Of a stretch of 64,000 nucleotides of DNA, positions 20,983-43,682 are shown piece after piece. The notes beneath the pieces were generated by a model that searched no databases, was not told the origin of the DNA, and saw only the letters and a list, made by a program, of their open reading frames with translations. Origin of the DNA: Alphaproteobacteria bacterium (GTDB lineage: Bacteria > Pseudomonadota > Alphaproteobacteria > Paracaedibacterales > CAITNM01); NCBI GenBank assembly GCA_947487955.1, contig CANKYV010000003.1, positions 15,165 to 79,164 of the forward strand, read 5' to 3'. Made by a program: the position numbers and the translations under genes. How positions within the stretch are numbered: the stretch's first letter is position 1; each line of letters opens with the position of its first letter.

Positions 20983-21010
20983 CTAAGGATAGCCTTAGAT
21001 TATTTTTTTG
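20983..21010. terminator. Candidate intrinsic terminator between tRNA-Ser and the end of the glycan locus
   Basis: CTAAGG-atag-CCTTAG hairpin (6 bp) followed by ATTATTTTTTT on the plus strand. It abuts the stop of the convergent methyltransferase gene. The stem is short. Confidence 0.4.
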
Positions 21011-21803
21011 TTGCGACGGAAACAATATATGGGGAAGTAAATTTATTTGTTGGCATTTTTATTCCAATTTTCTCTAAAGACCAAAATATTTTTGAAATTC
21101 CTGAAAGAATACGCCTAAAAACTGGGTTAAATGGATGAGATGAAAAAGAGCCTGAATGCACCATACTTAAATTTATAGACATCAAATAATCGCAGTTTTT
21201 TAAATTAAGAGAACTATTCTCATGAGCTTTGCGTAACATCTTACTTGTTAAAGGCACATGGATATCGTAAATACTTTTATCGATGCGTTTTTGAATATAT
21301 CCAATAATGCCAGAAATATTAGGAATAAGCGTAAAAAGCATGCCTCCAGGTTTCACAAACGCTGCACAGGCTTTAATGCAATCTGCTGTATCTTCAAAAT
21401 GCTCCACTACCCCAAATGAGACAACTAAATCAAATTTTTGAAGCAAATCAGAAGGAGGAGAAAAAAGATCTGCGCAATAAATTTCACCTGGTATTTTATA
21501 ATGATTTAAAAGCTTACGACTTTTTTCACATCCAATTTCCGAATAATCCAAGCCATAAACTGAAGCATCAAAATGCTGATAAAAATACATTGGCCACACA
21601 GAATTAGCGCAACCTATTTCAAGAACACTAAATTCTTTTTTATTTTTTAATAGAGCCTTTAAATACTGATGAAGCTGAAGATTAAAATAATTATCAAGAT
21701 TTTGGTCATTGCAATCAAAAAGCTTAGGAAAATTAGATTGAGACCAATTTTCATCCCAGTAATCTGCGCCTGCTTTATCTATTTGGGTCATTGTCTTACA
21801 CAA
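21000..21803 (-). CDS. Class I SAM-dependent methyltransferase
   Basis: 267 aa. Motif I-like VLEIGCANS, post-I DYS, and FDLVVSFGVVEHF...KPGG, typical of Methyltransf_11/23-type enzymes. It is the last gene of the co-directional locus. Confidence 0.8.
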   Translation of the reverse strand: MCKTMTQIDKAGADYWDENWSQSNFPKLFDCNDQNLDNYFNLQLHQYLKALLKNKKEFSVLEIGCANSVWPMYFYQHFDASVYGLDYSEIGCEKSRKLLNHYKIPGEIYCADLFSPPSDLLQKFDLVVSFGVVEHFEDTADCIKACAAFVKPGGMLFTLIPNISGIIGYIQKRIDKSIYDIHVPLTSKMLRKAHENSSLNLKNCDYLMSINLSMVHSGSFSSHPFNPVFRRILSGISKIFWSLEKIGIKMPTNKFTSPYIVSVATKK

Positions 21804-23089
21804 TCCTTTTGATATATTAAATAATATACTTTTTCATTATCAGTATTTTTTTCTAGTCCCTTTTTTAAGGATACAATATTCTTTTTTTGAAATTTCAATT
21901 TATCACTACTAAGGTAACTATTAAAAGCATCTACTACTGTTTTTAAATCTTTTGATGTAATAAGTGTTCCAATTTCAAATTGCTCTATATAAGAACGAAC
22001 TGCAGGCACATCTTCTGAAACAATAGGTATTTCTCCAGCGATATACTCAAATAGCTTATTTGGTAATGAGAAATACATACTTTTTGCATTAGTTTCACAT
22101 GTGAAAACACCTATATCAGCTCCTTGACAAAAAGATGGTATATCATGATGCGAAATAGGAGGAAGAAAAAAAACTCTATCAGTAACACCAATTTCAGCAC
22201 ATAAATTTTCCAATGTTGCTAAATACTCATTTTGAATAGTTCCCTGCACCACAAGAACAACTCTATCACATTGTGCTACGGCTTTTATAAGCTGATCGAT
22301 CCTTCTATAGGGCGCTAGTTGGCCAACATAATAAGCAATCAAAAAATTTGAATTAATACCTAATTTTTTTCGTAAATTATAAGGCTGAAACTTTTGAAAA
22401 ACAGGCATATTTTTCACGATATAAATCTTGCGATTGATTTTGTAACAATTCATCATTTCATTAGCGATAATATCATTTACACTAATAACAAAATCCGCAC
22501 GTTCTAATACGAATTTTTCCGCAATCGTAAATGCTTTAGTTTGAATCGATGATATTTTAGTCGTATCTAAAGCAGAGCATTCAGCTTTCCATTCATGCAA
22601 ATCTGCAATAACAATCTTGCCTGTGATTTTAGCTGCTATTAATCCCATTAAAGCTGTATTTACATCATGACAATGTAAATATCTTGCTCTTGAAAAAATC
22701 ATATAAGACAGCATACTTATATCAAACATGCATGGAAAATGATTAAAAACACCACTTAAACCAATTTTTTTAATACAAACACCAGAATCGAGTCCAGATT
22801 TTTCAAATTTTTCATCCTCTAAGCTATCTACTGGCTTAAGTAGCGTAACTTTTTTACCCAACCTGATAAGATCATTCACACATTTCTTAATGCGCCCATC
22901 AAAAGAGATTGCCACATGAGAAACCACAATGACTTCTTCTGACTTACGGTTTTTTGAGTTTTTTTTAGCAATCGGAATATAAAGAAATAATAATCCGAAC
23001 ATAAAAAAAATCGCACAAATAAAATGGTAAATTAGCTTAAATGGAAGCTTTAATATGCGCTTTATTTCAGCAATTTGAGAAGTGTTCAT
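21788..23089 (-). CDS. Glycosyltransferase (GT-B, GT4/GT1-like) with N-terminal TM anchor
   Basis: 433 aa. N-terminal TM. C-terminal GT-B motif SLPNKLFEYIAGEIPIV (the E-x7-E region). Confidence 0.75.
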   Translation of the reverse strand: MNTSQIAEIKRILKLPFKLIYHFICAIFFMFGLLFLYIPIAKKNSKNRKSEEVIVVSHVAISFDGRIKKCVNDLIRLGKKVTLLKPVDSLEDEKFEKSGLDSGVCIKKIGLSGVFNHFPCMFDISMLSYMIFSRARYLHCHDVNTALMGLIAAKITGKIVIADLHEWKAECSALDTTKISSIQTKAFTIAEKFVLERADFVISVNDIIANEMMNCYKINRKIYIVKNMPVFQKFQPYNLRKKLGINSNFLIAYYVGQLAPYRRIDQLIKAVAQCDRVVLVVQGTIQNEYLATLENLCAEIGVTDRVFFLPPISHHDIPSFCQGADIGVFTCETNAKSMYFSLPNKLFEYIAGEIPIVSEDVPAVRSYIEQFEIGTLITSKDLKTVVDAFNSYLSSDKLKFQKKNIVSLKKGLEKNTDNEKVYYLIYQKDCVRQ

Positions 23090-24773
23090 TTTTCAACCAT
23101 CTATTAAATATAAACTTTTTAAAGTCTGTATCTACAGGTATAGAATTTTCATTTTGAATTTTTTTCCACCAGTGCTGTTCTGGCGTGGCAAACCCTATCT
23201 TATCCTTCCTATTCAAAATTGAATCGAGATTAATATCTTTCATTGATTCTCTTAAAATCCATTTTGTTGTTGTATCTCTAAATTTTTTTCTTACCTGCAG
23301 TGAGATAATAAATTCTACCAAGCGATAGTCAAGAAAAGGCAAACGAGATTCTCTTGAAAAAGCCATGCTGTTGCGATCTTCATAACGCAGCAAGCTTTGT
23401 AAATTATTTGTAAAATGATAAAAACTCATTTCTGTTATGGTACGCACCGGATCTTCTTTAAAATCAATATTATGATTTTTAAGTTTCAACAAAAACTGAT
23501 AACAAGTCGGATGCCTTTGTTGTAAAGCTAGTAATACAGTATTTCTAACAGATTGCTTATTTTGCAGCATCTGCCATTTAAAAAAATTCATTAGATTAAT
23601 TAGTTGAAAACTTTTTAAGTAATCAAAGACGATACCATTCAGCATTCCTGGATATCCAAGGAGAGATTCGTCAGCTCCTTGTCCATCTAATAGCACAGTA
23701 ACATTATGTTGTTTTGCTTGTTCAAATGTTTTCCATTGAGCAAAAATACTTGTACCTAAAAATGGTAAATCTTGATGATATAAAACTTGATCAAGCTTTT
23801 CTATGAATTCTTCGACTGTTGGATAATTCTTATGTGAGTTAAGATTTTTTTTGCTAGCGAGTTCATCTATATAGGTAGATTCATCAACATCACAACCAGG
23901 AAATACAGAACTAAAAGTATAAATGTTTTGCCCTGTTTCTTGTATTTTGCGAAGCATAGAGACGATCGAAGTGCTATCAATACCTCCCGATAAGCACGCC
24001 CCTACAGGAACATCTGAGCGCAAACGTAATCGAATAGCATCCTCAAACAAAAATTTGAACTGCTCAATTGCATCTTGATCACTTATTTCCAATTCAGTTT
24101 CATAATCACGCAAATCATACCAGCGCGATATTGTGATTTCTTTATCAATTACTGCTTGTTCACCTGGTAGTATTTGAAAAACATTTTTATATAACGTTTC
24201 GCGTTCATGGTCACAAAAACCTAATTTTAAATAATGATCAGCAGCTTCTTCATTGATCTCACTAACCCAACCAAAGATATTTTTAAACTGCTTAATCTCA
24301 GAAGCAAAGGCAATTTTATCTCCTTGCTTGTAGTAATACAGTGGCTTAACACCAAAGCGATCACGAACTGCAAAGGCTATTTTTTCCTTATCATCCCAAA
24401 TAACAAAAGCAAACATTCCATTAAATTTATGGAGGCACTCTCTACCCCAATGAAGGTAACTTTTTAAAAGAACTTCAGTGTCAGTTTTTGTTTTAAATTG
24501 ATATCCAAGTTCTTCTAGTTCTTTTCGTATCTCCAAATAATTATAGATTTCACCATTGTAAGTAACCCAGAAGCGCTTATCCTCTGTGCTCATAGGTTGG
24601 TGCCCATCAGTGCTTAAATCAACAATAGCAAGACGCCGATGCGCCATGACAACGGGACCTTTTGGCGATGTGAATTCGTTCCACCCTCGCCCATCAGGCC
24701 CTCGATGTGCAACGCTATCAATCACGTTAGCTGAAAGGTCTTCAAAACCTATTGAGAAAAAAATTCCGCACAT
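23067..24773 (-). CDS. Asparagine synthase-type glutamine amidotransferase (AsnB-like), paralog 1
   Basis: MCGIFF N-terminal nucleophile Cys (start set at 24773 so that Cys is residue 2), HRGPDG, HRRLAIVDLS..GHQPM, and PP-loop ACLSGGIDSTS. Confidence 0.9.
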   Translation of the reverse strand: MCGIFFSIGFEDLSANVIDSVAHRGPDGRGWNEFTSPKGPVVMAHRRLAIVDLSTDGHQPMSTEDKRFWVTYNGEIYNYLEIRKELEELGYQFKTKTDTEVLLKSYLHWGRECLHKFNGMFAFVIWDDKEKIAFAVRDRFGVKPLYYYKQGDKIAFASEIKQFKNIFGWVSEINEEAADHYLKLGFCDHERETLYKNVFQILPGEQAVIDKEITISRWYDLRDYETELEISDQDAIEQFKFLFEDAIRLRLRSDVPVGACLSGGIDSTSIVSMLRKIQETGQNIYTFSSVFPGCDVDESTYIDELASKKNLNSHKNYPTVEEFIEKLDQVLYHQDLPFLGTSIFAQWKTFEQAKQHNVTVLLDGQGADESLLGYPGMLNGIVFDYLKSFQLINLMNFFKWQMLQNKQSVRNTVLLALQQRHPTCYQFLLKLKNHNIDFKEDPVRTITEMSFYHFTNNLQSLLRYEDRNSMAFSRESRLPFLDYRLVEFIISLQVRKKFRDTTTKWILRESMKDINLDSILNRKDKIGFATPEQHWWKKIQNENSIPVDTDFKKFIFNRWLKNEHFSNC

Positions 24774-25182: not shown

Positions 25183-26991
25183 TTATAAACCATCGGTAAT
25201 AATTTCACTTTCTAGACCAAAATTATTGATAGCATCATCTAATTGAACCTTTAATAACTTAGATATATTTATTGATTGATAATGTTCTTCAAATTTCTCA
25301 ACTCTAGATTTAGAAACATTTGATAAATCAAACAAGTTAAATTTTATTTTGAGAGCGCCATCTATTATAGATAAATTATACTCTTTTCTTTTTTTACTTG
25401 GTAAAGATAGAATTGAAACTACTTTAGAATCTTTATGAATAGCATTATAGTGTTTCTTTGATTTAGTTTCTTTATCTGAAAAGTAACTCTTAATAAAATC
25501 GTGTATGTCTTGCGTATCAATTGGATGTGTAGAATATCCTGCCTCCCCGCCAAATAGAATAAATGGAACACGAATTACTTCCTCATCAGCATGGTACCCG
25601 TACCAGACTTTTCCGTCTTCAAAAGTAGTTCCATGGTCTGCTGTAAAAACAACCAAGGTATCCTCTAAAATACCTTCTTTAGCCAAAACTTCTAAGAACC
25701 ACCGTAGCTTTTTAGCAAGAAACTCAATTCTTTCTTGGTATTTAGCTTTTACTTGTAAATGAACAGTATCATCATCCGAATAATGGTAGTCATTTTCAGC
25801 CCAATTAGCATAAGCACCTTCTACAGAGCTTAAGTCTTGCACTGTCTGTTCCGCAGTTCCAATGTGAAACAAGGTAAATGATCTAGGAGATTCCTTTCTT
25901 TGTGCTTTTATCTGCTCATATAAAAATGACCATTGAGATTGATCATCATACTTATCTTTTTGAAAAAAAGTTGTAAAAACTTGTTTTGCTCTTGAATCTG
26001 TTCTTGTATCCAAAGAATTTAAGAAAACGTGATAATCCATAATATTTGGTAAATAATTAGCGATTCTTTCATCAAGGAATATGCTTCTCAATCCTACATA
26101 ATTATTTATACCATTTGTCTCAGGGAATCCATTCCTGTGAAAAACAATGCATTTAAACGACACATTTTTTTGATTAAAGAAAAAAGGCAAATGATCGCAC
26201 GAATTCATATTATGAGGTCTTTTAGTAGAATCTAGATCGAGTTTGCCCGAGTACAGAACACCAAAAAAACCAGATGTATAAGGCTTATTTGTATATGCTT
26301 TCATATAAACAATCCCTTTTTTCGCAAGAGAATCTAGTGCCGTGCTTTTAGATTCAGGATTATAAAGGTTCGTCATATATGCAGGAAAACCATCTATTAC
26401 TATAAAAATCATGTGTTTTGGTTGTGAGTAATTTATTTTAACAGACTGCGATATAGGGAAAAATGACTCTGCGAACATCAATAAAACAACTAAAGGAAAA
26501 AGAACAAGAAATTTTCGCGATAAAGCAACAATTCTGTGTATGACTTGTAGATTTTTTCTTAAATTTAAAATAAAAAGAAAAAAAGATATTAGAAAAATAA
26601 ATAAAGCAAGATAGATTAATAAGTTATTTAAATTCAACCATTCTAACTTTATCCCAAATAATTTTAAGAATATTTGATAAAAAGCATTAGAGCTATATAT
26701 ATCTACCGAATATATTACTAAAAAGGATAAGAAAAGAGACAGGCATGTATTTGAGTAAACCCTAGCAGGAGAAGATTTAAAAAAGAAGCAAACCATGCTT
26801 AAAATTAAGCATAAGAATATTGATATAAATGTGGAAAAAAGCAGAACCAAAAGAGCTATATACTTTATATCTGAATTGAATAAAAGATTATCCTGAGCTG
26901 CATTGATTAAAATTAGAGCAACAAAAAAGGAACTCAAAAAAGCTGTAGATACAGAAGAGTAGTAAGATTTTAAGAAATTCATTTTTCGCAT
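25183..26991 (-). CDS. Sulfatase-like (alkaline-phosphatase superfamily) membrane transferase
   Basis: 602 aa. Several N-terminal TM segments, then MIFIVIDGFPA and VVFTADHGT motifs, as in the LtaS/EptA/OpgB-type phospho-substituent transferases. Confidence 0.7.
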   Translation of the reverse strand: MRKMNFLKSYYSSVSTAFLSSFFVALILINAAQDNLLFNSDIKYIALLVLLFSTFISIFLCLILSMVCFFFKSSPARVYSNTCLSLFLSFLVIYSVDIYSSNAFYQIFLKLFGIKLEWLNLNNLLIYLALFIFLISFFLFILNLRKNLQVIHRIVALSRKFLVLFPLVVLLMFAESFFPISQSVKINYSQPKHMIFIVIDGFPAYMTNLYNPESKSTALDSLAKKGIVYMKAYTNKPYTSGFFGVLYSGKLDLDSTKRPHNMNSCDHLPFFFNQKNVSFKCIVFHRNGFPETNGINNYVGLRSIFLDERIANYLPNIMDYHVFLNSLDTRTDSRAKQVFTTFFQKDKYDDQSQWSFLYEQIKAQRKESPRSFTLFHIGTAEQTVQDLSSVEGAYANWAENDYHYSDDDTVHLQVKAKYQERIEFLAKKLRWFLEVLAKEGILEDTLVVFTADHGTTFEDGKVWYGYHADEEVIRVPFILFGGEAGYSTHPIDTQDIHDFIKSYFSDKETKSKKHYNAIHKDSKVVSILSLPSKKRKEYNLSIIDGALKIKFNLFDLSNVSKSRVEKFEEHYQSINISKLLKVQLDDAINNFGLESEIITDGL

Positions 26992-28394
26992 AACATTAAT
27001 TTTCGAGTCTTTCTATCGGAATCAACAACTTCTATTCTCTTAAAGTGCTTGTTAATTTCATCAAAAACTTCTTGAAAGGTATAATAATGGTGCTTATTTC
27101 TACTGATCAAAGCGATGTTCTCATCGTCTGCAGAAACAAACTCAAAAATTAAGTATTTTGCAGAATAATTTGAGAGCATAGATGCTATTCTAGCGAAAGA
27201 CTGCTTGCTGGTTATATGAATATGGTGCATCACAGCTAAGAACAACACCATTTCACATTTTACTCTTTTGTCTAATCCTAGATATTCACATCCCATAAAG
27301 CCATGAGAAGACGTACTAAAAGCTATATCACTTACTATAGGTGTAATTCTTAGATTCTTTGATTTTGACATTGTATAAAGAGAATCAATACAAGCGCTAC
27401 TGCTATCAACGGATACAACTTTTGCACCACTACTCTCCGCTAGAAGAGAAAATTCGCCTGTATTACATCCTAAATCTAAAACAGTTTCTGGCTTTTTTAA
27501 ACTAAGATAACTTCCAACAGCTTCATACTTCAAATTACGTTGATGTGATTTGTCAATATTGTTGTAGTAGTCTTTCCAATTTACCCCTGATAAGCCAGCA
27601 ACTTTTATTGATTCTATTTTTTTATAAAGTCTCTCAAAAAATCCAATTCGTAATTGTTTAGAAATCTTTGTGTGCTGCCCTAAATGCTTTCTAGAAATTG
27701 TCTCCGCTATCTTTTCATTTTGCAGCATTAAAGACAGTACTTTGGTAAAGAATATGGATTGGTGTTTTATCTTACCCTTAAGTGATAAAAATCTATACAA
27801 AAAATCAAACCCAACCCCAAGAGGAGAATCTTTCAAAGCCATCCTTACCAAGTAATCATTACCATCTTCAGCCAGCAGAAGAGGAAAATAAAAATTGGAG
27901 TTAAATTGATCATTTGCGCGCCATAACCAAGCATCTCTCTCGTTCACTATAGAGGTAAAGTCAACTAACACCGGATTGCTGTTATTAAACAATATGTTAG
28001 TAGTAGATGCATCTTGCATATATAAATCTTCATTTAATAATTCCAAAGCAATTTCTAACGTGAGCAAAGCAGCATCTTTTAGCATCAACGGGGACCATTC
28101 ACCCGCATAAGTTTGGGGATAAATTTTATCATGTTTTAATAGCAAACAATTATTTGCAACATTAAAATCATTAGAAATTTTAGATCTTACAATTTTTCCT
28201 TTATCAATCAGGGAGTTAACAGTTAAATTGTTTAAAATTGACCTATATTGTTCCGCGACCTCCGGTTTAATAACCCGATAGAAATTATCTCCAGAAGAGA
28301 AAACAAACCCATTTGGATCAAGACTAGATAATGATGTTACTTGCACGTCTGCATTGATTAAATTATTAGTAACCTTTAATGTAGGCAAGCTCAT
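26979..28394 (-). CDS. Two-domain protein: unknown N-terminal domain plus C-terminal class I SAM methyltransferase
   Basis: 471 aa. The C-terminal half has VLDLGCNTGEFSLLAESSGAKVVSVDSS (motif I/II). The N-terminal ~250 aa (..YAGEWSPLMLKDAALLTLEIALELL..DASTTNILF..PVLVDFTS) is not assignable with confidence. Confidence 0.7.
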   Translation of the reverse strand: MSLPTLKVTNNLINADVQVTSLSSLDPNGFVFSSGDNFYRVIKPEVAEQYRSILNNLTVNSLIDKGKIVRSKISNDFNVANNCLLLKHDKIYPQTYAGEWSPLMLKDAALLTLEIALELLNEDLYMQDASTTNILFNNSNPVLVDFTSIVNERDAWLWRANDQFNSNFYFPLLLAEDGNDYLVRMALKDSPLGVGFDFLYRFLSLKGKIKHQSIFFTKVLSLMLQNEKIAETISRKHLGQHTKISKQLRIGFFERLYKKIESIKVAGLSGVNWKDYYNNIDKSHQRNLKYEAVGSYLSLKKPETVLDLGCNTGEFSLLAESSGAKVVSVDSSSACIDSLYTMSKSKNLRITPIVSDIAFSTSSHGFMGCEYLGLDKRVKCEMVLFLAVMHHIHITSKQSFARIASMLSNYSAKYLIFEFVSADDENIALISRNKHHYYTFQEVFDEINKHFKRIEVVDSDRKTRKLMLCEK

Positions 28395-28834
28395 CTTACA
28401 CTCTTTAAATAATTAAGACTTAAATCACATAAAGATTGTACCCTTTTATCCTTTTTTATAAAAAATACATCTGGTTCAATGTTAGTTATTTCAATTGGCG
28501 GGGAGAATTCTACAAGTTCTTCAGTATTACTTTTTTTGAGATATTGATTATTTTGATAAAAATATATTTTCCCCTCACATAGAACCAAAACTTTCGAATA
28601 ATGCGATTTTTTTAACTTTTCTAAAGAGAGAGAACCTATTTTTATCAAGACCCAGTTAGATCGACAAAAAAAACCTCTTAGCAAATTTAGTGGCCTAAAG
28701 ATATACAATGATACAAACCCCATAATCAATGCATAAAAAATTTGTGTGACCCCTCCTAATAGGCCAGGATCAATATAAGCAAAACATTCGCTAGATTCTA
28801 ATAAAAGAATTAATATAAAAAAAAATTTTTTCAT
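28391..28834 (-). CDS. Hypothetical small membrane protein
   Basis: I chose the start at MKKFFFILILLL (28834). It has a signal/TM segment, then a YIDPGLLGG motif and a second TM segment. I recognise no family. It overlaps the next gene by 4 nt (translationally coupled). Confidence 0.45.
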   Translation of the reverse strand: MKKFFFILILLLESSECFAYIDPGLLGGVTQIFYALIMGFVSLYIFRPLNLLRGFFCRSNWVLIKIGSLSLEKLKKSHYSKVLVLCEGKIYFYQNNQYLKKSNTEELVEFSPPIEITNIEPDVFFIKKDKRVQSLCDLSLNYLKSVR

Positions 28835-35893: not shown

Positions 35894-35895
35894 AA

Positions 35896-37059
35896 CTAAA
35901 TAGATTTCAATCCTTCTATCACATAATCAAAATCTTCCTTGGTCATTTTATTGTGAAGTGGAATTGCCATCGTATTTTGATCGCAAGCTTTAGCACCTGG
36001 AAAATCATCAGCCTTAATTCCATATTTATCTTTATAAAAGGTCAGCATATGCACCGCATGCGTTCCTGGACGTGTTGCGATGCCTTTTTGCTGCAAAACA
36101 TCCATCATGTCATTACGTGGCATTGGTGCTATTTTTGGATCAACATAACAAACATAAGCCTGCCATGCATGCTGAGTAATATCCTTTAAAACTGCTTGAG
36201 GTTTTAACCACTCAATAGATTTTAATTGCTCAGTATAATACTCTGCCCAAGTTTGGCGCTCTTTAATAAACGATTGTAGTTTGCCAAGTTGCACTAACCC
36301 TACTGCAGCCTGCAAATCTGTCATACGATAATTAAAACCAAGCATTTTAAAATCAGGTAATAAATAAGGCTTTGCACTATTATGGCGAACTTCTTCTGAA
36401 ATTTCAGCACCGTGATTACGCATAATTTCAGCTAAACGGTTAAGATCTTTATCATTTGCTGTAACCATTCCACCTTCACCTGTTGTAATAGACTTTCGAG
36501 GATGGAAAGAAAAAGCAGCCATATCTCCAAGTGAACCAGCAAATCTACCCTTATAAGAAGCACCTGCAGCGCATGCAGCATCTTCTAGAATTTTCACATG
36601 TGAAGGAATCACAGCACGGATAGCATCAATATCGGCACACAAACCAAATAAATGAACAGGAATAATAGCTTTCGTGCGTTCTGTGATTTTTGATGCGATA
36701 TCTTCAACTTTGATATTAAACGTTGTGATATCAACATCGCAAAAAACAGGAGTAGCACCGCAATACAAAACAACATTTGCCGTTGCCACCCAAGTAAACG
36801 CAGGTACAATTACTTCATCACCAGGCCCAACGCCCATTGCTGCCAAAGCAAGGTGAAGAGCTGTTGTACACGAAGTTACGGCCAGTGCATGATTGACATT
36901 ATGCAGCTTCGAAAATTCTTTTTCAAAAGCAGAAACTTTTGGCCCTTGAGTTAGCCAACCGCTTAATAAAGGCTCCCTTATTGCTTGCCATTCTTCATCA
37001 GAAAGCGCTGGAACTGCAATGGGAATTTTTCTAATTTTTTCAGCTCCTTGTGTCATCAC
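35896..37059 (-). CDS. DegT/DnrJ/EryC1/StrS-family sugar aminotransferase
   Basis: 387 aa. PLP-lysine region AAFSFHPRKSITTGEGG and the family N-terminal pattern LSGWLTQGPKV..FE.EF. Confidence 0.9.
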   Translation of the reverse strand: MMTQGAEKIRKIPIAVPALSDEEWQAIREPLLSGWLTQGPKVSAFEKEFSKLHNVNHALAVTSCTTALHLALAAMGVGPGDEVIVPAFTWVATANVVLYCGATPVFCDVDITTFNIKVEDIASKITERTKAIIPVHLFGLCADIDAIRAVIPSHVKILEDAACAAGASYKGRFAGSLGDMAAFSFHPRKSITTGEGGMVTANDKDLNRLAEIMRNHGAEISEEVRHNSAKPYLLPDFKMLGFNYRMTDLQAAVGLVQLGKLQSFIKERQTWAEYYTEQLKSIEWLKPQAVLKDITQHAWQAYVCYVDPKIAPMPRNDMMDVLQQKGIATRPGTHAVHMLTFYKDKYGIKADDFPGAKACDQNTMAIPLHNKMTKEDFDYVIEGLKSI

Positions 37060-38045
37060 GCTACTTTCTTTCTGCGCATTTCAACTTGCTCAATATGCGT
37101 TTTTCGCCATTCAATAAGTTTTTTCAAACCGTTTTCTAGCGAAACTGTTGATTTAAAACCAATTTGCTCAGCCGCTTTTTTAGGGCAACCTATACGATTT
37201 TTTACAAATGTTAATCCAGCAGGCTCATATTGAACAGAGAGATTGGAATTCGTAACTTTTAAAATCAGTTCTGCTAACTCTTTAATGGATGTTCGAATAC
37301 CTGTACCAACATTATAAAATTCATCCGTCGTATCAGCTTTCATAGCACATACGTTTGCTTTTGCGCAGTCTCCTACGTAAACAAAATCATAAGCTTGGGA
37401 TCCATCTCCATAAAGTGTTGGAGCAATACCTTTATCAAGATTATCTAACATTTTCATAATAACCGCGATATACGCACCACGATAATCCTGACGAGGACCA
37501 TAAACATTCATATACCGAAGCCCAACAAAAGGAAGATTATAGCGATGATAATAAGCACGCGCCATCGCCTCACCAGCAATCTTTGTTGCACCATAAAAAT
37601 TGGTATTGTTAAAGGGATGATCTTCATCCATTGGCTCACAAATAGCATCTCCATAAACTGACGCGGAAGAAGAATAGACAAGACGCTTCACACCTTGCGC
37701 AACACAAGCCTCTAGAATATTAAAAGTACCCTCTACATTTACACTAAAAGCTGATCGAGGAAATTCATGACACTGCAAAAGCCAAAGCGCCGCAAAATGA
37801 AAAACCCCATCAGCGCCTTTAAAAGCTTCGTTCAAAATGTCTGTTTGACAAATATCTCCACCTATTTCAAAAACACGCACACGTGGATCTTTAAGCGCGT
37901 TCTCTATGTTACCGTAAGTGCCACGAACAAAATTATCGTAAATGATTAGCTCTTTAATATCTTCCTTTAAAAGCTCATCAACTGTATGAGAACCTATGAG
38001 CCCTGCACCACCCACTACAACTAATTTTTTACCTTTTAAGTCCAT
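37056..38045 (-). CDS. NAD-dependent nucleotide-sugar epimerase/dehydratase (extended SDR)
   Basis: 329 aa. GGAGLIGSH Rossmann motif and catalytic YGATK (YxxxK). Confidence 0.85.
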   Translation of the reverse strand: MDLKGKKLVVVGGAGLIGSHTVDELLKEDIKELIIYDNFVRGTYGNIENALKDPRVRVFEIGGDICQTDILNEAFKGADGVFHFAALWLLQCHEFPRSAFSVNVEGTFNILEACVAQGVKRLVYSSSASVYGDAICEPMDEDHPFNNTNFYGATKIAGEAMARAYYHRYNLPFVGLRYMNVYGPRQDYRGAYIAVIMKMLDNLDKGIAPTLYGDGSQAYDFVYVGDCAKANVCAMKADTTDEFYNVGTGIRTSIKELAELILKVTNSNLSVQYEPAGLTFVKNRIGCPKKAAEQIGFKSTVSLENGLKKLIEWRKTHIEQVEMRRKKVA

Positions 38046-39156
38046 TTTTCACCGCGCTTACTATTTGGTTAATTTCTGCATTTTTCACATATCCACTCAT
38101 CGGCAAACTTAGCACTTCATTTGCCAGCTCTTCACACACAGGAAGAACGCTTTGAGTAGCAGTTGGATAATGTTTATAGGCTGTTTGCAAATGAAGTGGC
38201 TTTACATAATACACCATGGTTGGAACACCAGCTTCTTTAAGAGCCGTTATGAGCTTATTTCTATCAATATGCTGAGGCAGTCGTATCGTATATTGCGCCC
38301 AAGCAGATGTTACATCTTTCATGACAAAAGGTACCTGCACTATATCTTTCAGCGCTTCACTATATGCATCTGCTGTTTTTTGGCGAGCACTTAATTCATC
38401 AGGAAATATTTTTAATTTTTCTATCAAAATAGCTGCTTGAATTGTATCTAAACGACCATTCATTCCAATACGCACATTGTCGTATTTATCAGATCCTTGC
38501 CCATGCACTCTTAATGATTTAATGATTGATGCCAGTTCATCATCATTAGTGAAAATAGCACCACCATCACCATAACATCCCAGAGGCTTAGCTGGGAAAA
38601 AGCTAGTTGTAGCTAAGTCTCCAATATTTCCAATTTTTCGATCTTTATAAGATGCACCAAAGCTTTGTGCGCCATCTGCCATAACCCACAAATTATGCTC
38701 ATCAGCAATCTCTTGAAGAGCATCATAATCTGCCGGCTGACCAAATAAATCGACTGGAATAATTCCAACAGGATTAAGCCCTAATTTTTTCCCTGTTTGA
38801 ATCCCTTGCCGTAAACTTTTTAGGTCAAGGTTATACGTGTCTTCTAAAGAATCAATAAAAATTGGTGTTGCCCCCATCCATGCAACCACTTCAGCAGTTG
38901 CCGCAAATGTAAACGATGGAACAAAAATCGCATCACCAGGCTTTATATTTTTTGCCATCAATCCTAAACCCAATGCATCAGTTCCATTAGCACAAGAAAT
39001 CGCATGCTTAACACCACAAAATTCAGCTAATTGTTTTTCAAGTTCATAAACTTCTGGCCCCATAATATACGTTCCATGGTCTAAAACGCGCTTAATAGCC
39101 GCGTCAATTTCTGGACGAATACGTTCTTGTTGAGCTTTAAGATCAATAAATTGCAC
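38029..39156 (-). CDS. UDP-2-acetamido-2-deoxy-3-oxo-glucuronate aminotransferase-like (WbpE/WlbC-like DegT aminotransferase)
   Basis: 375 aa. It lines up end-to-end with WbpE as I recall it (FIDLK.Q...I...ID..I.RVL.HG.YI.GPEV.ELE..LA.F.G.K..ISCANGTDAL; TSFFP.KPLGCYGDGGAIFTNDDELA; RLDT.QAAIL). It sits next to the WlbA-WlbB fusion. Confidence 0.8.
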   Translation of the reverse strand: MQFIDLKAQQERIRPEIDAAIKRVLDHGTYIMGPEVYELEKQLAEFCGVKHAISCANGTDALGLGLMAKNIKPGDAIFVPSFTFAATAEVVAWMGATPIFIDSLEDTYNLDLKSLRQGIQTGKKLGLNPVGIIPVDLFGQPADYDALQEIADEHNLWVMADGAQSFGASYKDRKIGNIGDLATTSFFPAKPLGCYGDGGAIFTNDDELASIIKSLRVHGQGSDKYDNVRIGMNGRLDTIQAAILIEKLKIFPDELSARQKTADAYSEALKDIVQVPFVMKDVTSAWAQYTIRLPQHIDRNKLITALKEAGVPTMVYYVKPLHLQTAYKHYPTATQSVLPVCEELANEVLSLPMSGYVKNAEINQIVSAVKNGLKR

Positions 39157-39171
39157 GATTTTACCTTAATG

Positions 39172-40743
39172 TTAAGCTGTCTTTATAGTATTGTTTTCTT
39201 TAATTTCAATCAGGTTTTCTTCTACAATTTTGTATAAGCGCCCTTCTCTTGGGCAAACCAAATCTTCCCCAAGTTTCTCGCCGGCATGACTAACCCAACC
39301 AATTTGCTTTGCTGGATTACCAACCATTACCGCATGAGGTTTTACATTTTTTGTAACCACAGCACCTGCACCAATTAAACTATATGCACCCAAACGATTA
39401 CCACACACAATGGTAGCGTTTGCACCAATAGTTACTCCGCGCTCTACGTGAGTTTTACGAAACTCATCCTTACGCTCTATCTCTGCCCTAGGATTATGCA
39501 CATTAGTAAAGACGCAAGAAGGACCACAGAAAACACCGTCTTCTAAAACAACTCCTTTGTAAAGACTCACATTATTTTGAACCTTGCAACGATCACCTAT
39601 TACAACATCAGGACCAATCATTACATTTTGCCCAATTACGCAATCCTCGCCTATTTTTGTTCCTTTAATAATATGCGAAAAATGCCAAATTTTTGTACCC
39701 TGACCAATTTCACACCCAGCATCAACAATTGCTGTTTCATGAGTAAAATAGAGCGCAACTTCATTATTTAAAGTAACCGTAGTAGATGAATGCAATGATT
39801 GCTGAGCTGCCTCTAAAACTTGCAATACTTGTAATCCCTCAAAACCATCAGTACGTGGTTTTTTATTATTTTTAATACTGTCAATAAAGTGCTGACACTC
39901 AAGTTTCAATGGCTCAGCAACCTCCAATGGCACATGAACAACATCAGCTTTTTCTGGCTGAGGCAACCCATCCACCCAAGTAACTTGATGAGGATAAAGC
40001 TTTAATTTCTCTCCCCAAGGCAATCCATCGTCAAAAACAGCCATACCTCGATCACCAACAACAACCAGCTTCTGCTCTTTGTATGGGTGCAACCAAGAAA
40101 CAAAAATGTGTGCTTGAATTCCATTTTTGAACGACATGTGTGTAGTCGTCACATCATGAATACGAGGATTAAGATGACAGGCACCTGTTGCGTAAACTTT
40201 TTCTGGTAAATCACTTGCTAAGCTTAAAATCATGGAAATGTCATGCGGAGCAAAACTCCATAGAATATTCTCTTCATTACGAAATTTACCCAGATTTAAA
40301 CGGTTAGAGTAAATATACTGAAGACGCCCAAGATTACCTTTAGATATAAGCTGCTTTAGCTCTAAAAAGGCAGGATGATACTGCAGCAAATGCCCCACCA
40401 TAAGCTTACGATCTGCTTGTGTGGATAATTCGCACAATTTTCGTGCTTCTTCAACCTTTAAAGATAAGGGCTTTTCTACAAATACATGTTTGCCTGCCTT
40501 AAGCACTTTTTGCGTTAGGTCAAAATGCTGCGCTGCAGGCGCTGCAATCACAACGCCATCAACGTCACTTTGCAACACTTGTTCTAGGGTTAGAGCTGGA
40601 ATACCATAAGTTTGGGAGGCAACATTGGCTAACTCTGAGTTAGCATCGCACACTGAATGCAGAGCACCAATCTCGGAAAAATTACGAACTAAGTTTTTGC
40701 CCCAATATCCGCAACCTACAACAGATATTTTTATATTATGCAT
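39172..40743 (-). CDS. Bifunctional Gfo/Idh/MocA oxidoreductase (WlbA-like) fused to a left-handed beta-helix N-acetyltransferase (WlbB/WbpD-like)
   Basis: 523 aa. The N-terminal ~330 aa carry VVGCGYWGKNLVRNF...VFVEKPL (Gfo/Idh/MocA). The C-terminal ~190 aa carry hexapeptide repeats and ...VFCGPSCVFTNVHNPRAEIERKDEFRKT.V..G..IGANATIVCG, closely resembling WlbB. Confidence 0.85.
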   Translation of the reverse strand: MHNIKISVVGCGYWGKNLVRNFSEIGALHSVCDANSELANVASQTYGIPALTLEQVLQSDVDGVVIAAPAAQHFDLTQKVLKAGKHVFVEKPLSLKVEEARKLCELSTQADRKLMVGHLLQYHPAFLELKQLISKGNLGRLQYIYSNRLNLGKFRNEENILWSFAPHDISMILSLASDLPEKVYATGACHLNPRIHDVTTTHMSFKNGIQAHIFVSWLHPYKEQKLVVVGDRGMAVFDDGLPWGEKLKLYPHQVTWVDGLPQPEKADVVHVPLEVAEPLKLECQHFIDSIKNNKKPRTDGFEGLQVLQVLEAAQQSLHSSTTVTLNNEVALYFTHETAIVDAGCEIGQGTKIWHFSHIIKGTKIGEDCVIGQNVMIGPDVVIGDRCKVQNNVSLYKGVVLEDGVFCGPSCVFTNVHNPRAEIERKDEFRKTHVERGVTIGANATIVCGNRLGAYSLIGAGAVVTKNVKPHAVMVGNPAKQIGWVSHAGEKLGEDLVCPREGRLYKIVEENLIEIKENNTIKTA

Positions 40744-40749
40744 GATTTT

Positions 40750-42519
40750 TTACCTTATTTTTTGAAGATTTTCGTAACTAGCAATTTGATTGACTTGCCC
40801 CTGCTTCATCATCACAATTCGATCACATTCTTTGAGCGTCGTTAACCTGTGCGCAATCATAATTACCGTACGATTTTTACTAACAGCCTGAATTGTTTTC
40901 ATTAATCGCGCTTCCGTTTCATTATCAAGAGCAGAGGTTGCCTCATCAAAAATAAGAACCTCGGGATTACGGTATAACGCACGCGCAATTGCAATGCGCT
41001 GACGTTCACCCCCTGACAGCCTAATGCCCCGCTCTCCAACTATTGTTTTTGAACCTTGAGGCAAATTATTAATAAACTTACGCAGCTGAGCCGCATCTAT
41101 AGCTGCGTTTAATTTAATTTTATCGATTTCTTTTTCACCAAAAGCAATATTAGCTTCAATTGCATCATCTATTAAATACACACTTTGCGGAACGTACCCA
41201 ATCTTTTGATGCCATTGATAAGAACTCACTGTAAATTTATTATCGATCAGAACTTGGCCGTGATAGGGCTTTAAAAGCCCCAAAATAATATCAACCAATG
41301 TCGATTTACCTGATCCCGTTTCACCAATAATCCCTATGCATTCTCCTTTTTTAATATCCAAGAAAATATTTTGAAGAGCATCTTTTTCAGTATTGAGATA
41401 TCTAAAGGAAACATTTGTTAAATTGATTAATTCATCAAATTTAAAATTAGGCACATCTTCATAGGTTTTTTTTACAGCTATTGAAGTATACTCATTGCAA
41501 ACTCGATCTACAGAAGAAATACTGCTTTTTAAAATATTCAACTGATTTATTATACGATTTAGTCCAGGCATCAACCGAAATCCAGCATAAAGATATCCGC
41601 CCAATATACCAATCATTTGCACTGGGCTCTCGTGATCAAAGCATAAAATAGCAATAGCCAAGACAAAAATGCCCACAAACAGTGTTTCAATAACCAATCT
41701 TGGCAACACATTTGTAGCCGTTTGTAGAGCTTGCACACGAGACTTTTTATGAGAATAATGCCGATACGCATCAATAAAAGCCTCACGCTTCCCAAGCAAT
41801 ACTATCTCTTTAAAGCCGTGAAAAAACTGCAACAAATTTTGACTGCAAAAAAGTGATGCCTCTTGCAAACGTTGCCCCCATTTGTAAAACTGCGGTAACA
41901 AACCTTTTACCATCGTAAATCCAAAAGTAGCGCCAATAGCAAAAATCATAAAAGCTAATGATGGATTCATAAAAATAATCATTCCGATTAAACACAAAAA
42001 TATTGTGCTTTCAGACAAAATTATGGCAATAGACATCATACCACCAGAAAACATCAATTCTGAATCTCCACCTACAACAGCTAAGCCAAGTGATGAATTT
42101 CTTGTGAGGTAAAATGCATAATCGGCCTCAGCATACCTATATAACAACTTATTCTTAAAATGATAACTCATTTTTTGGATAGAAAAATTTTGATAAAAAG
42201 CTTCTGCAGCTGCCACAAGATTTTTGACTAAATACACACCACCCACAGCAATGGCGATATAAAAAACAACACGTCCTGGAGATAAATTTCCTTCTAAACC
42301 AACCATACTTAAGTACTTTATTCCAAATTCAGGCTGATTAAGAACTTGCGCAAAAATCACAACCAGAGAAGCAGTAATAATCTCAAAAAATGATGAGAAC
42401 AGAGCAAAGCCAACGATTCCTAACCACTTAACTTTCTCTTCTTTAGTAAGCAAAAATCTTAGTTTTTGAATTGCTGATAATATAGATGGTGCAGATGACA
42501 CTTTTTTCGTATTTTCCAT
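40750..42519 (-). CDS. Fused permease/ATPase ABC exporter (type I, MsbA/PglK-like)
   Basis: N-terminal six-helix TMD. Walker A GETGSGKST, signature LSGGERQRIAIARAL, Walker B LIFDEATSALD. I chose the start at MENTKK (42519), with 42549 as an alternative. Confidence 0.9.
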   Translation of the reverse strand: MENTKKVSSAPSILSAIQKLRFLLTKEEKVKWLGIVGFALFSSFFEIITASLVVIFAQVLNQPEFGIKYLSMVGLEGNLSPGRVVFYIAIAVGGVYLVKNLVAAAEAFYQNFSIQKMSYHFKNKLLYRYAEADYAFYLTRNSSLGLAVVGGDSELMFSGGMMSIAIILSESTIFLCLIGMIIFMNPSLAFMIFAIGATFGFTMVKGLLPQFYKWGQRLQEASLFCSQNLLQFFHGFKEIVLLGKREAFIDAYRHYSHKKSRVQALQTATNVLPRLVIETLFVGIFVLAIAILCFDHESPVQMIGILGGYLYAGFRLMPGLNRIINQLNILKSSISSVDRVCNEYTSIAVKKTYEDVPNFKFDELINLTNVSFRYLNTEKDALQNIFLDIKKGECIGIIGETGSGKSTLVDIILGLLKPYHGQVLIDNKFTVSSYQWHQKIGYVPQSVYLIDDAIEANIAFGEKEIDKIKLNAAIDAAQLRKFINNLPQGSKTIVGERGIRLSGGERQRIAIARALYRNPEVLIFDEATSALDNETEARLMKTIQAVSKNRTVIMIAHRLTTLKECDRIVMMKQGQVNQIASYENLQKIR

Positions 42520-42603
42520 AGCTACCGCAGTCCGGGTGAAAAGCACCAAACTGCAAAAATTTAAGTTATATTTTTAAAGCAAAATCGCCTTAAAAAATTA
42601 TCG

Positions 42604-43107
42604 TTATGCTGCTTCCACAGCATAAATGGGAAGAATTGTTTTCATCTCTCTTCCCATAAAACTTAGCAATAAATGAACGCGGCTTTTATCATCAAGGGCA
42701 TCAAATCTTGCTTCCTGATCTTTAAAAGCCCCCTCGCAAATGCGAACTTTGTTCCCTTTTGTAAAAGCCACCAAGCTTGCCATCAGAACAACCTCGCTGC
42801 TAACTTCTTGCCCCATCAATTCATCGATCACTCTACATGGAACTTGCGCTGGTTTCAAATCATTACTCATCAATAAATGAGACACCCCACGCGCACCATT
42901 AATACTACGCCATTGAGCAGATTTCATGTCCATACCAACAAATATATAACGCGGAAAGAGAGGCGCTAAAATTTCATCAACTTTACGTGCATGTCGACGC
43001 ATTTTTTTAAATCTTGGCGCATAAACTTCATACCCCATATCCAGCAAGTTTTTTTTAGCAACAAGCTCTTTTAAAGGTTGAGTATAAGCAACACACCATG
43101 TTATCAC
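42604..43107 (-). CDS. NusG-family paralog (RfaH/specialised-NusG-like transcription antiterminator)
   Basis: NGN-domain pattern W.VAYTQP..E..A...L...G.EVY.P......R...K..E...PLFPRYIFV plus a C-terminal KOW-like FTKGNKVRICEGAF. The GTG at 43107 forms a GTGA overlap with the upstream gene's stop; the ORF-track start is 43158. Confidence 0.75.
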   Translation of the reverse strand: MITWCVAYTQPLKELVAKKNLLDMGYEVYAPRFKKMRRHARKVDEILAPLFPRYIFVGMDMKSAQWRSINGARGVSHLLMSNDLKPAQVPCRVIDELMGQEVSSEVVLMASLVAFTKGNKVRICEGAFKDQEARFDALDDKSRVHLLLSFMGREMKTILPIYAVEAA

Positions 43108-43682
43108 GGTTTCACCTTCGAAATATGTAACAGTTCTAATGTCAATAATCGCTGACACTCAATTTTACTCTTAATAGCATCATATGTTTCTTGTGGATTT
43201 ATAATATCTGTAACAAAAACAGCGTCATACTTTTTAAAATCCGCACTGATATCCACAACTTCCACAATGACGCCTGTTCCATGCGCAACAAGCCTTGCAA
43301 TGTCTGCTAAATCTCCACTACCAACAAGCGCTACCACTAACCATTTATGAGATTTGCATACTTCAAAAATTTCTTCACACTGTGTACGGGCATCCCTAAA
43401 AAAAGTCATCGAACGCGCTAGATAATTGGTCACCATAAGACTTTTTTCTGAAAATCCTTTTGGCGTTAAAAAATATGTAATACGACGCGGTGAAAGCTGA
43501 GAGGCTCGAATCCAACCCTTTGTAACACAACTCTTCAGATATTGATTCATTAAACCTAAAGCAATACCAAGTTCACCAGCTAAACCTCGCTGAGTAAAAG
43601 ATGGATTGCGCTCGATCTCACTTAAGAGATGCACCATGACCTTTTGCTCCGCATGCTCACGAGTATCTTGAAAAGTAGCCAT
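43104..43682 (-). CDS. Winged-helix (MarR/EPS-associated type) transcriptional regulator with an extra C-terminal Rossmann-like domain
   Basis: The N-terminal ~100 aa carry ...NPSFTQRGLAGELGIALGLMNQYLKSCVTKGWI....YFLTPKGF..K (wHTH). The C-terminal part carries VVALVGSGDLADIARL..., a G-x-G-containing beta-alpha-beta-like segment. It is the first gene of the locus. Confidence 0.65.
   Translation of the reverse strand: MATFQDTREHAEQKVMVHLLSEIERNPSFTQRGLAGELGIALGLMNQYLKSCVTKGWIRASQLSPRRITYFLTPKGFSEKSLMVTNYLARSMTFFRDARTQCEEIFEVCKSHKWLVVALVGSGDLADIARLVAHGTGVIVEVVDISADFKKYDAVFVTDIINPQETYDAIKSKIECQRLLTLELLHISKVKP

Follow-up and report, generated by a model that had tools for sequence, protein, structure and literature searches.

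A putative surface-glycan operon with a PglK/Wzk-like exporter, an RfaH-like factor and an unannotated GT-C-fold protein in a Holosporales/Paracaedibacter-like alphaproteobacterium

The 64,000-nucleotide stretch analyzed here (the window; positions 15,165 to 79,164 of contig CANKYV010000003.1, whose source metagenome contig is ENA ERZ27280204 k141_1558230, 116,755 bp) carries a glycan locus of 19 genes that extends from 43682 down to 21000 on the minus strand. We consider this locus to be, probably, one long operon for a lipid-linked surface glycan that resembles an O-antigen or a capsule, in a Holosporales/Paracaedibacter-like alphaproteobacterium. The closest characterized systems are the Bordetella wbm locus for chemistry and Helicobacter pylori Wzk or Campylobacter jejuni Pgl for export. 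Its chemistry is shared with the former and its export logic with the latter, and its head is common to Holosporales; the locus has a PglK/Wzk-type flippase, its own RfaH-like factor with an ops-like site, and a member of an unannotated family of GT-C-fold proteins.

In the proposed route, the RfaH-like NusG paralog would probably be recruited at the ops-like site just 3' of its own gene and would take RNA polymerase across the 17 genes that follow. Judging by family-level homology, genes 4 and 5 would convert UDP-GlcNAc, or UDP-GlcNAcA from a dehydrogenase encoded elsewhere, to a 2,3-diacetamido sugar, and genes 6–10 are predicted, in our assignment of specific reactions, to introduce an amino group at position 4, to form an amide from a carboxyl or an amidine from an acetamido group, and to carry out N-formylation and deacylation or re-acylation. 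Two membrane-anchored GT4 glycosyltransferases would build the glycan on undecaprenyl (di)phosphate, with the initiating transferase encoded elsewhere, and by analogy the PglK/Wzk-like ABC exporter would flip the lipid-linked product. Gene 12, the GT-C-fold protein, is predicted to use a polyprenyl-linked donor, a sulfatase-superfamily membrane protein would add a phospho-substituent, methyltransferases would cap or decorate the product, and the variable tail of the locus would give serotype-like diversity.

The Holospora- and Paracaedibacter-like bacteria that live in amoebae and ciliates do not grow in culture on their own, and host recognition probably depends on their surface glycans. A shared head (regulator, RfaH-like factor and ops-like site, flippase, and diacetamido-sugar enzymes) joined to an interchangeable tail would offer a genetic handle on serotype-like diversity. 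Literature searches found no published description of a Holosporales glycan locus.

Layout and transcriptional control

As a preliminary description of the window had stated, the 19 open reading frames (ORFs) of the locus are all on the minus strand. They are intact and lie head-to-tail, encoding 178–613 aa; plus-strand ORFs between 21000 and 43682 reach at most 103 aa and are all nested inside minus-strand genes. Its further statement, that most neighboring genes overlap by 1–26 nt or lie within 20 nt of each other, holds for 15 of 18 junctions (overlaps of 1–26 nt or gaps of at most 19 nt). The three exceptions are the junction of the winged-helix and NusG-paralog genes, where a 55-nt overlap in the ORF list becomes a 4-nt GTGA overlap from an in-frame GTG at 43107; that of the NusG-paralog and ABC genes, where a 54-nt gap (84 nt with the gene caller's ABC start, ATG 42519) contains the ops-like element; and that of the sulfatase-like gene and the second AsnB gene, where the 361-nt gap lengthens to 409 nt (24774–25182) with the AsnB start at ATG 24773. 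The tight coupling of the genes on one strand supports an operon layout, and terminator-like sites inside the locus occur at chance level (12 vs 11.2 expected). Mechanically called starts appear too long in four genes (24821 vs 24773, 43158 vs 43107, 42549 vs 42519, and 28927); for the second AsnB, the NusG paralog, the ABC exporter and a small transmembrane (TM) protein, respectively, later starts are indicated by homologues and the N-terminal cysteine rule. The enzyme classes first assigned by reading the translations were all reproduced when domains were called through Pfam, NCBIfam and PDB sequence searches.

Two control genes head the locus. The winged-helix protein of gene 1 scores 62.1 bits against TIGR04176 (MarR_EPS), under the cutoff of 88, and its homologues in three related loci (L004, L005 and L006) are 70–73% identical. 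Its C-terminal part of about 85 aa (residues ~110–190) contains a G-S-G-D-L-A stretch reminiscent of a Rossmann/Rex-like dinucleotide-binding motif, which would suggest a ligand-sensing regulator. Gene 2 encodes the NGN domain of the NusG family (PF02357, 61.3 bits, residues 21–114), and among NCBIfam models RfaH (TIGR01955) matches best at 106.7 bits, ahead of UpxY (69.9) and NusG (58.9). Homologues of the paralog are 157–171 aa long, consistent with the 167-aa product from GTG 43107.

The core GCGGTAGC follows the NusG paralog in the window, in the close relative L006, in Candidatus Odyssella thessalonicensis (L004), in an AT-rich marine single-cell genome (L012) and in a GC-rich alphaproteobacterial metagenome-assembled genome (MAG; L018); Holospora obtusa (L005) has GCGGCAGC, with one T>C change. 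The elements lie at L004 5693–5740, L005 7449–7480, L006 5660–5700, L012 3543–3557 and L018 9878–9912. In Odyssella, where the ABC gene is absent, the element precedes the fusion gene described below. The recruitment site of RfaH in Escherichia coli, ops, we take to be GGCGGTAGCGTG, with a core equal to GCGGTAGC. The L018 element, given as CTGCGGTAGCGTG and in a fuller reading as CACCCGGACTGCGGTAGCGTG, includes TGCGGTAGCGTG, which is identical to E. coli ops at 11 of 12 positions; the element of the window was found by reading the leader and differs from E. coli ops at three positions. The 7-mer GCGGTAGC alone is not rare (an estimated 2.5 or so expected by chance in 128 kb, 2 seen), and a search with the E. 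coli ops consensus at up to two mismatches returned matches at chance level (16 vs 15.6 expected). What argues for a functional ops-like site is that its position and flanking sequence are conserved across very different base compositions, the six loci ranging from AT-rich to GC-rich. Its presence in six loci supports RfaH-type antitermination, and because of this conservation we read genes 3–19 as an antiterminated operon of this type.

The pairing of a NusG paralog with a short conserved leader element resembles RfaH/ops and Bacteroides UpxY: the core equals the ops core, and, as with UpxY, the paralog gene heads the glycan locus presumably under its control. The arrangement differs in the place of the ops-like site, which comes after the gene of the paralog itself. 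In the H. obtusa locus (L005, 6883–7890) the NusG paralog looks frameshifted, being called as 124 aa with its C-terminal part in another frame to ~7387, and an inserted nucleotidyltransferase/NTase_sub_bind gene pair separates the ops-like site from the ABC gene.

Relatives of the locus and the amino-sugar cassette

A gene-by-gene comparison with the Odyssella, H. obtusa and L006 loci and with two unrelated metagenome contigs (L002, L003) shows a mosaic of a conserved head (genes 1–5) and an exchangeable tail (genes 10–17). Genes 1–5 are 64–82% identical in Odyssella and Holospora, apart from the frameshifted Holospora paralog (55%) and the missing ABC gene of Odyssella, and with L006 included the identity of head genes is 64–92%. 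L006 has the same purC-BolA-Grx-FtsJ-RF flank (83–93% identity) and retains genes 1–8 at 70–92%, followed from gene 9 onward by a different tail. Genes 10–15 recur in L002 and L003 at 49–65% identity for genes 11–13 and 26–37% for genes 10, 14, and 15, and on contig P0003 the same order runs on through the sulfatase-like gene and then an AsnB gene. The GC content is 0.36–0.39 in the head (34000–44000) vs 0.29–0.32 in the tail (26000–34000), a drop that fits a separate origin of the tail module. A conserved head with a swapped tail is the classic arrangement in serotype-variable O-antigen and capsule loci; an exchangeable region has been documented within the Bordetella wbm O-antigen locus (PMC3849452). 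Retention of so large a locus by an apparent ATP importer had been considered notable, and becomes less so now that the head is found conserved in H. obtusa and Candidatus Odyssella thessalonicensis.

Gene 4 encodes a fusion of a sugar 3-dehydrogenase of the GFO/IDH/MocA family with a WlbB-type N-acetyltransferase. The best PDB match of the N-terminal domain is 7bvj (85 bits), which we take to be GnnA, and its best NCBIfam match is an archaeal UDP-GlcNAc 3-dehydrogenase model (167.6 bits). Solved WbpB and WlbA structures exist, and none was among the best 60 PDB matches, so that the domain is nearer to UDP-GlcNAc 3-dehydrogenases. Relatives of the fusion protein fall into more than 120 clusters at 74–91% identity, including Odyssella (82%), H. 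obtusa F1 (82%) and Paracaedibacteraceae MAGs, and proteins at least 90% identical to the TLC transporter of the window are labelled Alphaproteobacteria MAGs. Because the relatives of both proteins point there, we assign the host to an uncultured, Holosporales/Paracaedibacter-like alphaproteobacterium. Fusions of a GFO and a hexapeptide domain (WlbA-WlbB) are widespread, with at least 80 loci (L012–L091) at 46–65% identity in many phyla, among them Desulfobacterota, Nitrospirota, Planctomycetota, Acidobacteriota, Chloroflexota, bacteria of the candidate phyla radiation and one archaeal MAG.

The fusion gene opens a cassette of seven genes, continued by a WbpE-type aminotransferase, a short-chain dehydrogenase/reductase (SDR) nearest to UDP-GlcNAc 4-epimerases, a second DegT aminotransferase, an AsnB-type amidotransferase (82% identical in L006 and 47–68% in L012, L018, and L009), a formyltransferase and a WbmS-like protein. 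Genes 4–10 are collinear in L018 and across phyla, and their order is largely kept in L064 (Chlorobiaceae), L075 (SAR86), L052, and L013. This collinearity argues that they constitute one nucleotide-sugar pathway, widespread in bacteria. The product probably carries 2,3-diacetamido, 4-amino or formamido, and amide or amidino groups, and would resemble the Bordetella O-antigen and its cap. Synthesis of a nonulosonic acid or glycosylation of flagellin was considered and rejected, as matches to PseC, LegB, and LegC fell below cutoff and no NeuB/PseI-type synthase was found.

A tblastn search of the window and the fusion-bearing loci with an E. coli Ugd sequence placed a nucleotide-sugar 6-dehydrogenase in at least 19 of these loci, directly upstream of the fusion in about half, including L064 and L075, but found none in the 64-kb window or in Holosporales-type loci. 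Scanned window proteins likewise gave no UDPG_MGDP_dh match that would indicate a UDP-GlcNAc 6-dehydrogenase (WbpA). That a 6-dehydrogenase adjoins the fusion gene elsewhere speaks for a uronic acid as the general substrate of the family. In this genome there are two options: the 6-dehydrogenase may be encoded elsewhere, or the fusion may act on UDP-GlcNAc, the latter fitting the best matches of its dehydrogenase domain. The glycan had been predicted to be built on a 2,3-diacetamido uronic acid; the family-level homology of the WlbB- and WbpE-type enzymes supports the diacetamido part, but the uronic level is not shown by the locus, with its UDP-GlcNAc 3-dehydrogenase-like domain and no 6-dehydrogenase in the window.

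A UDP-GlcNAc 2-epimerase (WbpI), previously listed as missing, is present in the window as a relic of about 45 aa, and no intact gene was found there. In tblastx comparisons the relic is 39–51% identical to the intact Epimerase_2 genes located after the fusion gene in L029, L025, L034, L037, and L061; its only Pfam match is Epimerase_2 (E = 0.013), and stops occur in all frames around it. The Odyssella locus retains an intact Epimerase_2 gene. Because the relic aligns with intact genes elsewhere, we take the 2-epimerase of this locus to have decayed, and its sugar is probably gluco-configured. The cassette resembles the UDP-ManNAc3NAcA pathway of Pseudomonas aeruginosa (WbpA/B/E/D/I) in its WbpE-like protein (360 bits), its WbpD/WlbB-like acetyltransferase (205 bits) and its WbpB-class dehydrogenase domain, and differs from it in the absence of wbpA from the window, in having wbpI only as a relic, and in a dehydrogenase domain closer to UDP-GlcNAc 3-dehydrogenases than to solved WbpB/WlbA.

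In chemistry the nearest relatives are the wbm and wlb loci of Bordetella bronchiseptica and B. parapertussis, which share WlbA/B/C-type synthesis of 2,3-diacetamido sugars, a 2,3-diacetamido uronic acid polymer in Bordetella, and a horizontally exchanged variable region predicted to modify the capping sugar (PMC2279256, PMC3849452). Further points of likeness are SDR enzymes (WbmF, 107 bits here) and a WbmS-family protein (74.8 bits). The wbm locus also encodes AsnB-type amidotransferases and formyltransferases. It differs in exporting its O-antigen through a separate-subunit ABC system, WbmL/M/N, rather than a fused PglK-type protein, whereas the present locus has WlbA and WlbB joined in one protein and an RfaH-like gene and ops-like site of its own; we know of no GT-C protein of the gene 12 family in wbm. 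This likeness is one of gene content, the sequence comparison being that of WbmS and WbmF through the PDB rather than of gene order. The earlier view that the locus matches nothing characterized therefore stands for collinearity, as no characterized cluster within reach was collinear, but was too strong for gene content.

Export, the GT-C-fold protein and alternative readings

Gene 3 encodes the only recognizable exporter, as noted previously. Its best NCBIfam match is PglK (NF050066; 328 bits, residues 27–583), and its best single-half match in the PDB is PglK, 5c73, aligned over the full length (286 bits, query 27–587 to chain 2–561). MsbA and HepA reach 262.8 bits, and a housekeeping MsbA was rejected at this score against a cutoff of 602. 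The Odyssella locus, which has the same head without the ABC gene, encodes a Polysacc_synt (Wzx) protein further down; the locus of the window has no Polysacc_synt protein, and the ABC exporter stands in the place of Wzx. A lone PglK-type transporter is not unprecedented as an exporter: in H. pylori (Wzk) and C. jejuni (PglK), too, Wzx is replaced as flippase of an Und-PP-linked glycan by a single fused half-transporter of the PglK family, and the cluster lacks Wzy and Wzz (PMC2841628). The present locus differs from these systems in a score far under the PglK cutoff, in a partner GT-C protein that is not STT3/PglB by sequence, in the lack of a WaaL in the window, and in its sugars.

Other known export routes are not matched. 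A domain scan of the 19 proteins gave no match to models of Wzx, Wzy_C, Wzz, ABC2_membrane/Wzt_C, WecA/Bac_transf, UDPG_MGDP_dh, or Epimerase_2, which agrees with the preliminary description except for the 2-epimerase relic. A Wzx/Wzy-dependent pathway is not indicated, there being no Polysacc_synt, Wzy_C or Wzz model in the locus, nor is a Wzm/Wzt pathway, as the window contains neither an ABC2_membrane permease nor a Wzt ATPase; both occur in L009. The search for wbpA, wecA, and waaL beyond the locus covered the window and 10 kb further left, and none was found in either.

The 510-aa product of gene 12, until now described only as polytopic, is a membrane protein with a GT-C fold and a candidate for a periplasmic transferase encoded within the locus. 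It has no Pfam or NCBIfam match (in Pfam not even at E = 10), and neither 60 aligned members of its family nor the longer members (546–900 aa) gave a meaningful Pfam match or a fused domain, respectively. An exhaustive HMMER search matched 171 clusters (50% identity), of which 104 reached E ≤ 1e-10. An AlphaFold (AF2) model from the family alignment (pLDDT 93.8, pTM 0.93) places ~390 aa in a helical membrane domain and ~110 aa in a soluble C-terminal domain of alpha/beta type. Significant Foldseek matches in the PDB are all GT-C enzymes, namely STT3, PglB, AglB, DPY19, AftA, and ArnT (probability 0.99–1.00, E 5e-5 to 8e-2, TM-scores 0.44–0.59, identity 9–13%). WaaL, whose structure is in the PDB, was not among the best 50 matches listed; the known Wzy and WaaL enzymes belong to other clans, and GT-C_A enzymes use lipid-P-monosaccharide donors, oligosaccharyltransferases excepted (PMC10920833).

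Residues D34, R150, Q195, G338, R342, and Y343 are invariant in the 60 sequences, and E339 is present in at least 90%. D34 lies in the first loop, 12 residues after TM1, on a side that the fold match suggests is extracytoplasmic. Three features link gene 12 to GT-C_A enzymes (PglB/STT3, ArnT, AftA, DPY19): the membrane fold of many helices, the acidic residue that is invariant in the loop following TM1, and the soluble domain at the C terminus. It differs in belonging to no Pfam or NCBIfam family, in low TM-scores, and in a soluble domain much smaller than that of PglB. Measured against STT3/PglB (GT66) it has no Pfam match to E 10, no WWD motif and a soluble domain of only ~110 aa, and by sequence it is not an oligosaccharyltransferase of the STT3 family.

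In the loci examined, members of the gene 12 family are always in glycan clusters and adjoin a glycosyltransferase, and most have amino-sugar genes (SDR-DegT-AsnB or WbmS type) as neighbors. The export system beside them varies, from a PglK-like ABC protein (window, L012) to Wzx (L008, L010) and Wzm/Wzt with a Wzy_C-like protein (L009). Because the family co-occurs with such varied export systems, gene 12 probably encodes a GT-C-fold transferase that works in the periplasm after flipping by whichever route, and it probably performs the periplasmic step for which no enzyme had been recognized. Addition of a sugar from a polyprenyl-phosphate donor to the exported glycan or to lipid A-core is the best-placed role, if just short of probable; en bloc transfer of the glycan is possible but less favored, and polymerization of repeat units rather unlikely. 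It is a bolder and rather unlikely proposition that the family is a new class of periplasmic transferase for 2,3-diacetamido/4-amino (triamino-uronamide-type) sugars, here paired with the PglK-like flippase and replacing WaaL/Wzy as an oligosaccharyltransferase-like en bloc transferase or ligase. If true, this would add a third, Pgl-like route of surface-glycan attachment in Holosporales and scattered other bacteria. The family is named in no database, and its mutable invariant residues and recurring adjacent sugar cassette make it testable in a heterologous host.

Several points weigh against a single operon for a lipid-linked surface glycan. No initiating phosphoglycosyltransferase, WaaL or 6-dehydrogenase was found in the 64-kb window or 10 kb further left, and the locus has no GtrB/ArnC-type GT2, which bears on the donor of gene 12. 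Two of the central assignments lie below their equivalog cutoffs, gene 2 for RfaH (106.7 vs 144.5 bits) and gene 3 for PglK (328 vs 1000 bits), and the 409-nt gap with the relic could hold an internal promoter. That the locus is instead a decaying remnant, no longer fully functional in a host-dependent bacterium, would agree with the 2-epimerase relic, with the apparently frameshifted Holospora paralog, and with the genes missing from the window and the 10 kb to its left. We regard this as very improbable, since all 19 ORFs are intact and align over 93–100% of their length where full-length homologues exist, overlapping starts and stops are preserved, and the identity of head genes across genera argues for purifying selection.

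An Arn-like pathway is distinctly unlikely. Genes 6–14 would make one modified 4-amino sugar on undecaprenyl phosphate, deformylate it and flip it, and the GT-C protein would, in the manner of ArnT, attach it to lipid A or core, so that the locus would mainly modify lipopolysaccharide and form no polymer. The similarity of gene 7 to ArnB and of gene 9 to the ArnA formyltransferase domain, the deacetylase fold of gene 10 (the enzyme class of ArnD; the gene overlaps gene 9), and the order in which a membrane-anchored glycosyltransferase and a small TM protein come after the GT-C gene are all in line with it, as is the structural class of gene 12, which contains ArnT and uses mostly lipid-P-monosaccharide donors (PMC10920833, Table 1). 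The transferase next to the GT-C gene, however, is a GT4, or in L009 a soluble GT2, rather than an ArnC/GtrB-type GT2, and the SDR is far nearer to 4-epimerases than to ArnA (158 vs 47.5 bits). Related loci with WbmS have FemAB, ATP-grasp, or hexapeptide enzymes in place of the formyltransferase, which fits N-acyl swapping on the nucleotide sugar better than a transient formyl group, and two GT4s, two AsnBs and WlbABC-type genes suggest an oligo- or polysaccharide. Quite improbable, in our view, is general protein glycosylation of the Pgl type, in which the exporter would flip a lipid-linked oligosaccharide and the GT-C protein would transfer it to periplasmic or surface proteins. PglK is the best match of the ABC protein, 17 of the 23 top Foldseek matches of the GT-C protein are catalytic subunits of oligosaccharyltransferases (query-normalized TM-scores 0.46–0.59), and a WaaL is missing from the window and the 10 kb to its left; but the GT-C protein has neither a Pfam STT3 match nor a WWDYG-type motif, its soluble domain is small, and the L009 family member sits with Wzm/Wzt and a Wzy_C-like protein. 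The Foldseek E-values for oligosaccharyltransferases (5e-5) and for ArnT/AftA (1e-2) do not decisively separate the options.

Remaining tail genes and flanking regions

Table 1. Positions of the 19 genes of the glycan locus, two elements within it and two neighboring features, numbered along the window
Feature	Position	Strand	Evidence or remark
Gene 1, winged-helix regulator, MarR/EPS-associated type, 192 aa	43104..43682	-	HTH_24 28.5 bits
Gene 2, RfaH-like NusG paralog	42604..43158 (likely start GTG 43107, 167 aa)	-	Pfam NusG NGN domain
Ops-like element GGTGCTTTTCACCCGGACTGCGGTAGCTATGG	42516..42547	-	Between NusG paralog stop codon and first downstream gene
Gene 3, fused TMD-NBD ABC exporter, PglK/Wzk-like candidate lipid-linked-glycan flippase	40750..42519	-	ABC_membrane + ABC_tran
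Gene 4, sugar 3-dehydrogenase (GFO/IDH/MocA) + WlbB-type N-acetyltransferase fusion	39172..40743	-	C-terminal domain WlbB 3mqg 205.5 bits
Gene 5, WbpE-type 3-aminotransferase	38029..39156	-	DegT 367.6 bits; PDB WbpE 360 bits
Gene 6, extended SDR, 4-epimerase or C4-oxidase type	37056..38045	-	PDB 6dnt 158 bits; WbgU/WbpP ~130; WbmF 2pzj 107
Gene 7, second DegT, 4-aminotransferase-like	35896..37059	-	PDB perosamine synthase 259 bits, ArnB 254 bits
Gene 8, AsnB-type glutamine amidotransferase 1	34052..35893	-	Asn_synthase 270 bits + GATase_7
Gene 9, sugar N-formyltransferase	33134..34048	-	Formyl_trans_N + Formyl_trans_C; top PDB match ArnA formyltransferase domain 99.9 bits
Gene 10, WbmS-like deacetylase-fold protein	32428..33141	-	PF22537 156.3 bits; PDB 3hft (Bordetella WbmS) 74.8 bits
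Gene 11, SAM methyltransferase, conserved partner of GT-C gene	31689..32453	-	Methyltransf_11 68 bits
Gene 12, GT-C-fold membrane glycosyltransferase (predicted), 510 aa	30164..31696	-	AF2 + Foldseek; family without Pfam model
Gene 13, GT4 with conserved C-terminal membrane anchor	28947..30164	-	Glycos_transf_1 + Glyco_trans_4_2; TM-like segment 366-390
Gene 14, small protein, 2 TM-like segments	28391..28927 (start uncertain)	-	80-88 aa in relatives
Gene 15, N-terminal domain without assignment + C-terminal SAM methyltransferase, 471 aa	26979..28394	-	Methyltransf_23, residues 284-427
Gene 16, membrane-anchored alkaline-phosphatase/sulfatase-superfamily protein	25183..26991	-	Sulfatase 46.3 bits, residues 193-481
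UDP-GlcNAc 2-epimerase relic (wbpI/wlbD-like), ~45 aa	24836..24970	-	Inside 409-nt gap between genes 16 and 17
Gene 17, AsnB-type amidotransferase 2	23067..24773 (start corrected to ATG 24773)	-	Asn_synthase 219.5 bits
Gene 18, second GT4, N-terminal TM segment	21788..23089	-	Glycos_transf_1 77 bits; TM-like segment 12-41
Gene 19, SAM methyltransferase	21000..21803	-	Methyltransf_23 + Methyltransf_11
tRNA-Ser(GCT)	20825-20917	+	3' boundary of locus; ARAGORN; Rfam tRNA 59.4 bits
TLC transporter	53125-54651		565.9 bits

The S-adenosylmethionine (SAM) methyltransferase of gene 11 has homologues 63–65% identical in L002 and L003, where they likewise lie directly upstream of the GT-C gene. The C-terminal tail of the GT4 of gene 13 is also found in its L003 homologue. 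Gene 14, without a family match in Pfam scans, is 37% identical to its L003 counterpart over the TM part. The N-terminal domain of gene 15 has the motif QDAxxxNIxF...PVxxDxTS (D-x4-N...D) in common with L003; it gave no match to an APH-family kinase in hhalign, and the single-sequence AF2 model of the protein has a pLDDT of 34.6. The motif would suggest a kinase, but that gene 15 combines one with the methyltransferase, as a WbdD-like capping enzyme, is a guess.

Gene 16 encodes five to six N-terminal TM-like segments. It was rejected as a true sulfatase, its matches to such enzymes being weak and no CxPxR motif being seen, and may tentatively be a periplasmic phospho-substituent transferase. 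From ATG 24773 the product of gene 17 begins M-C-G-I-F, the start of an Ntn-amidotransferase.

The tRNA-Ser gene reported beside the locus and the reported tlc gene were both recovered. The flanks of the window further encode flagellar basal-body and stator proteins, aconitase, UppP, AsmA, LptF/G, RpoN, and PTS EI. Five flanking ORFs of 179–333 aa (14995–16396, 45909–46754, 48044–49581) are without Pfam match, and the sole Pfam match of a 996-aa protein adjoining tlc (50102–53092, minus strand) is a Pyr_redox_2 domain. Outside the operon, ExoD (1814–2548, minus strand), UppP (BacA; 4546–5337, minus strand) and a PGM/PMM-family mutase, possibly GlmM (18746–20143, plus strand), are relevant to the supply of glycan carrier and precursors.

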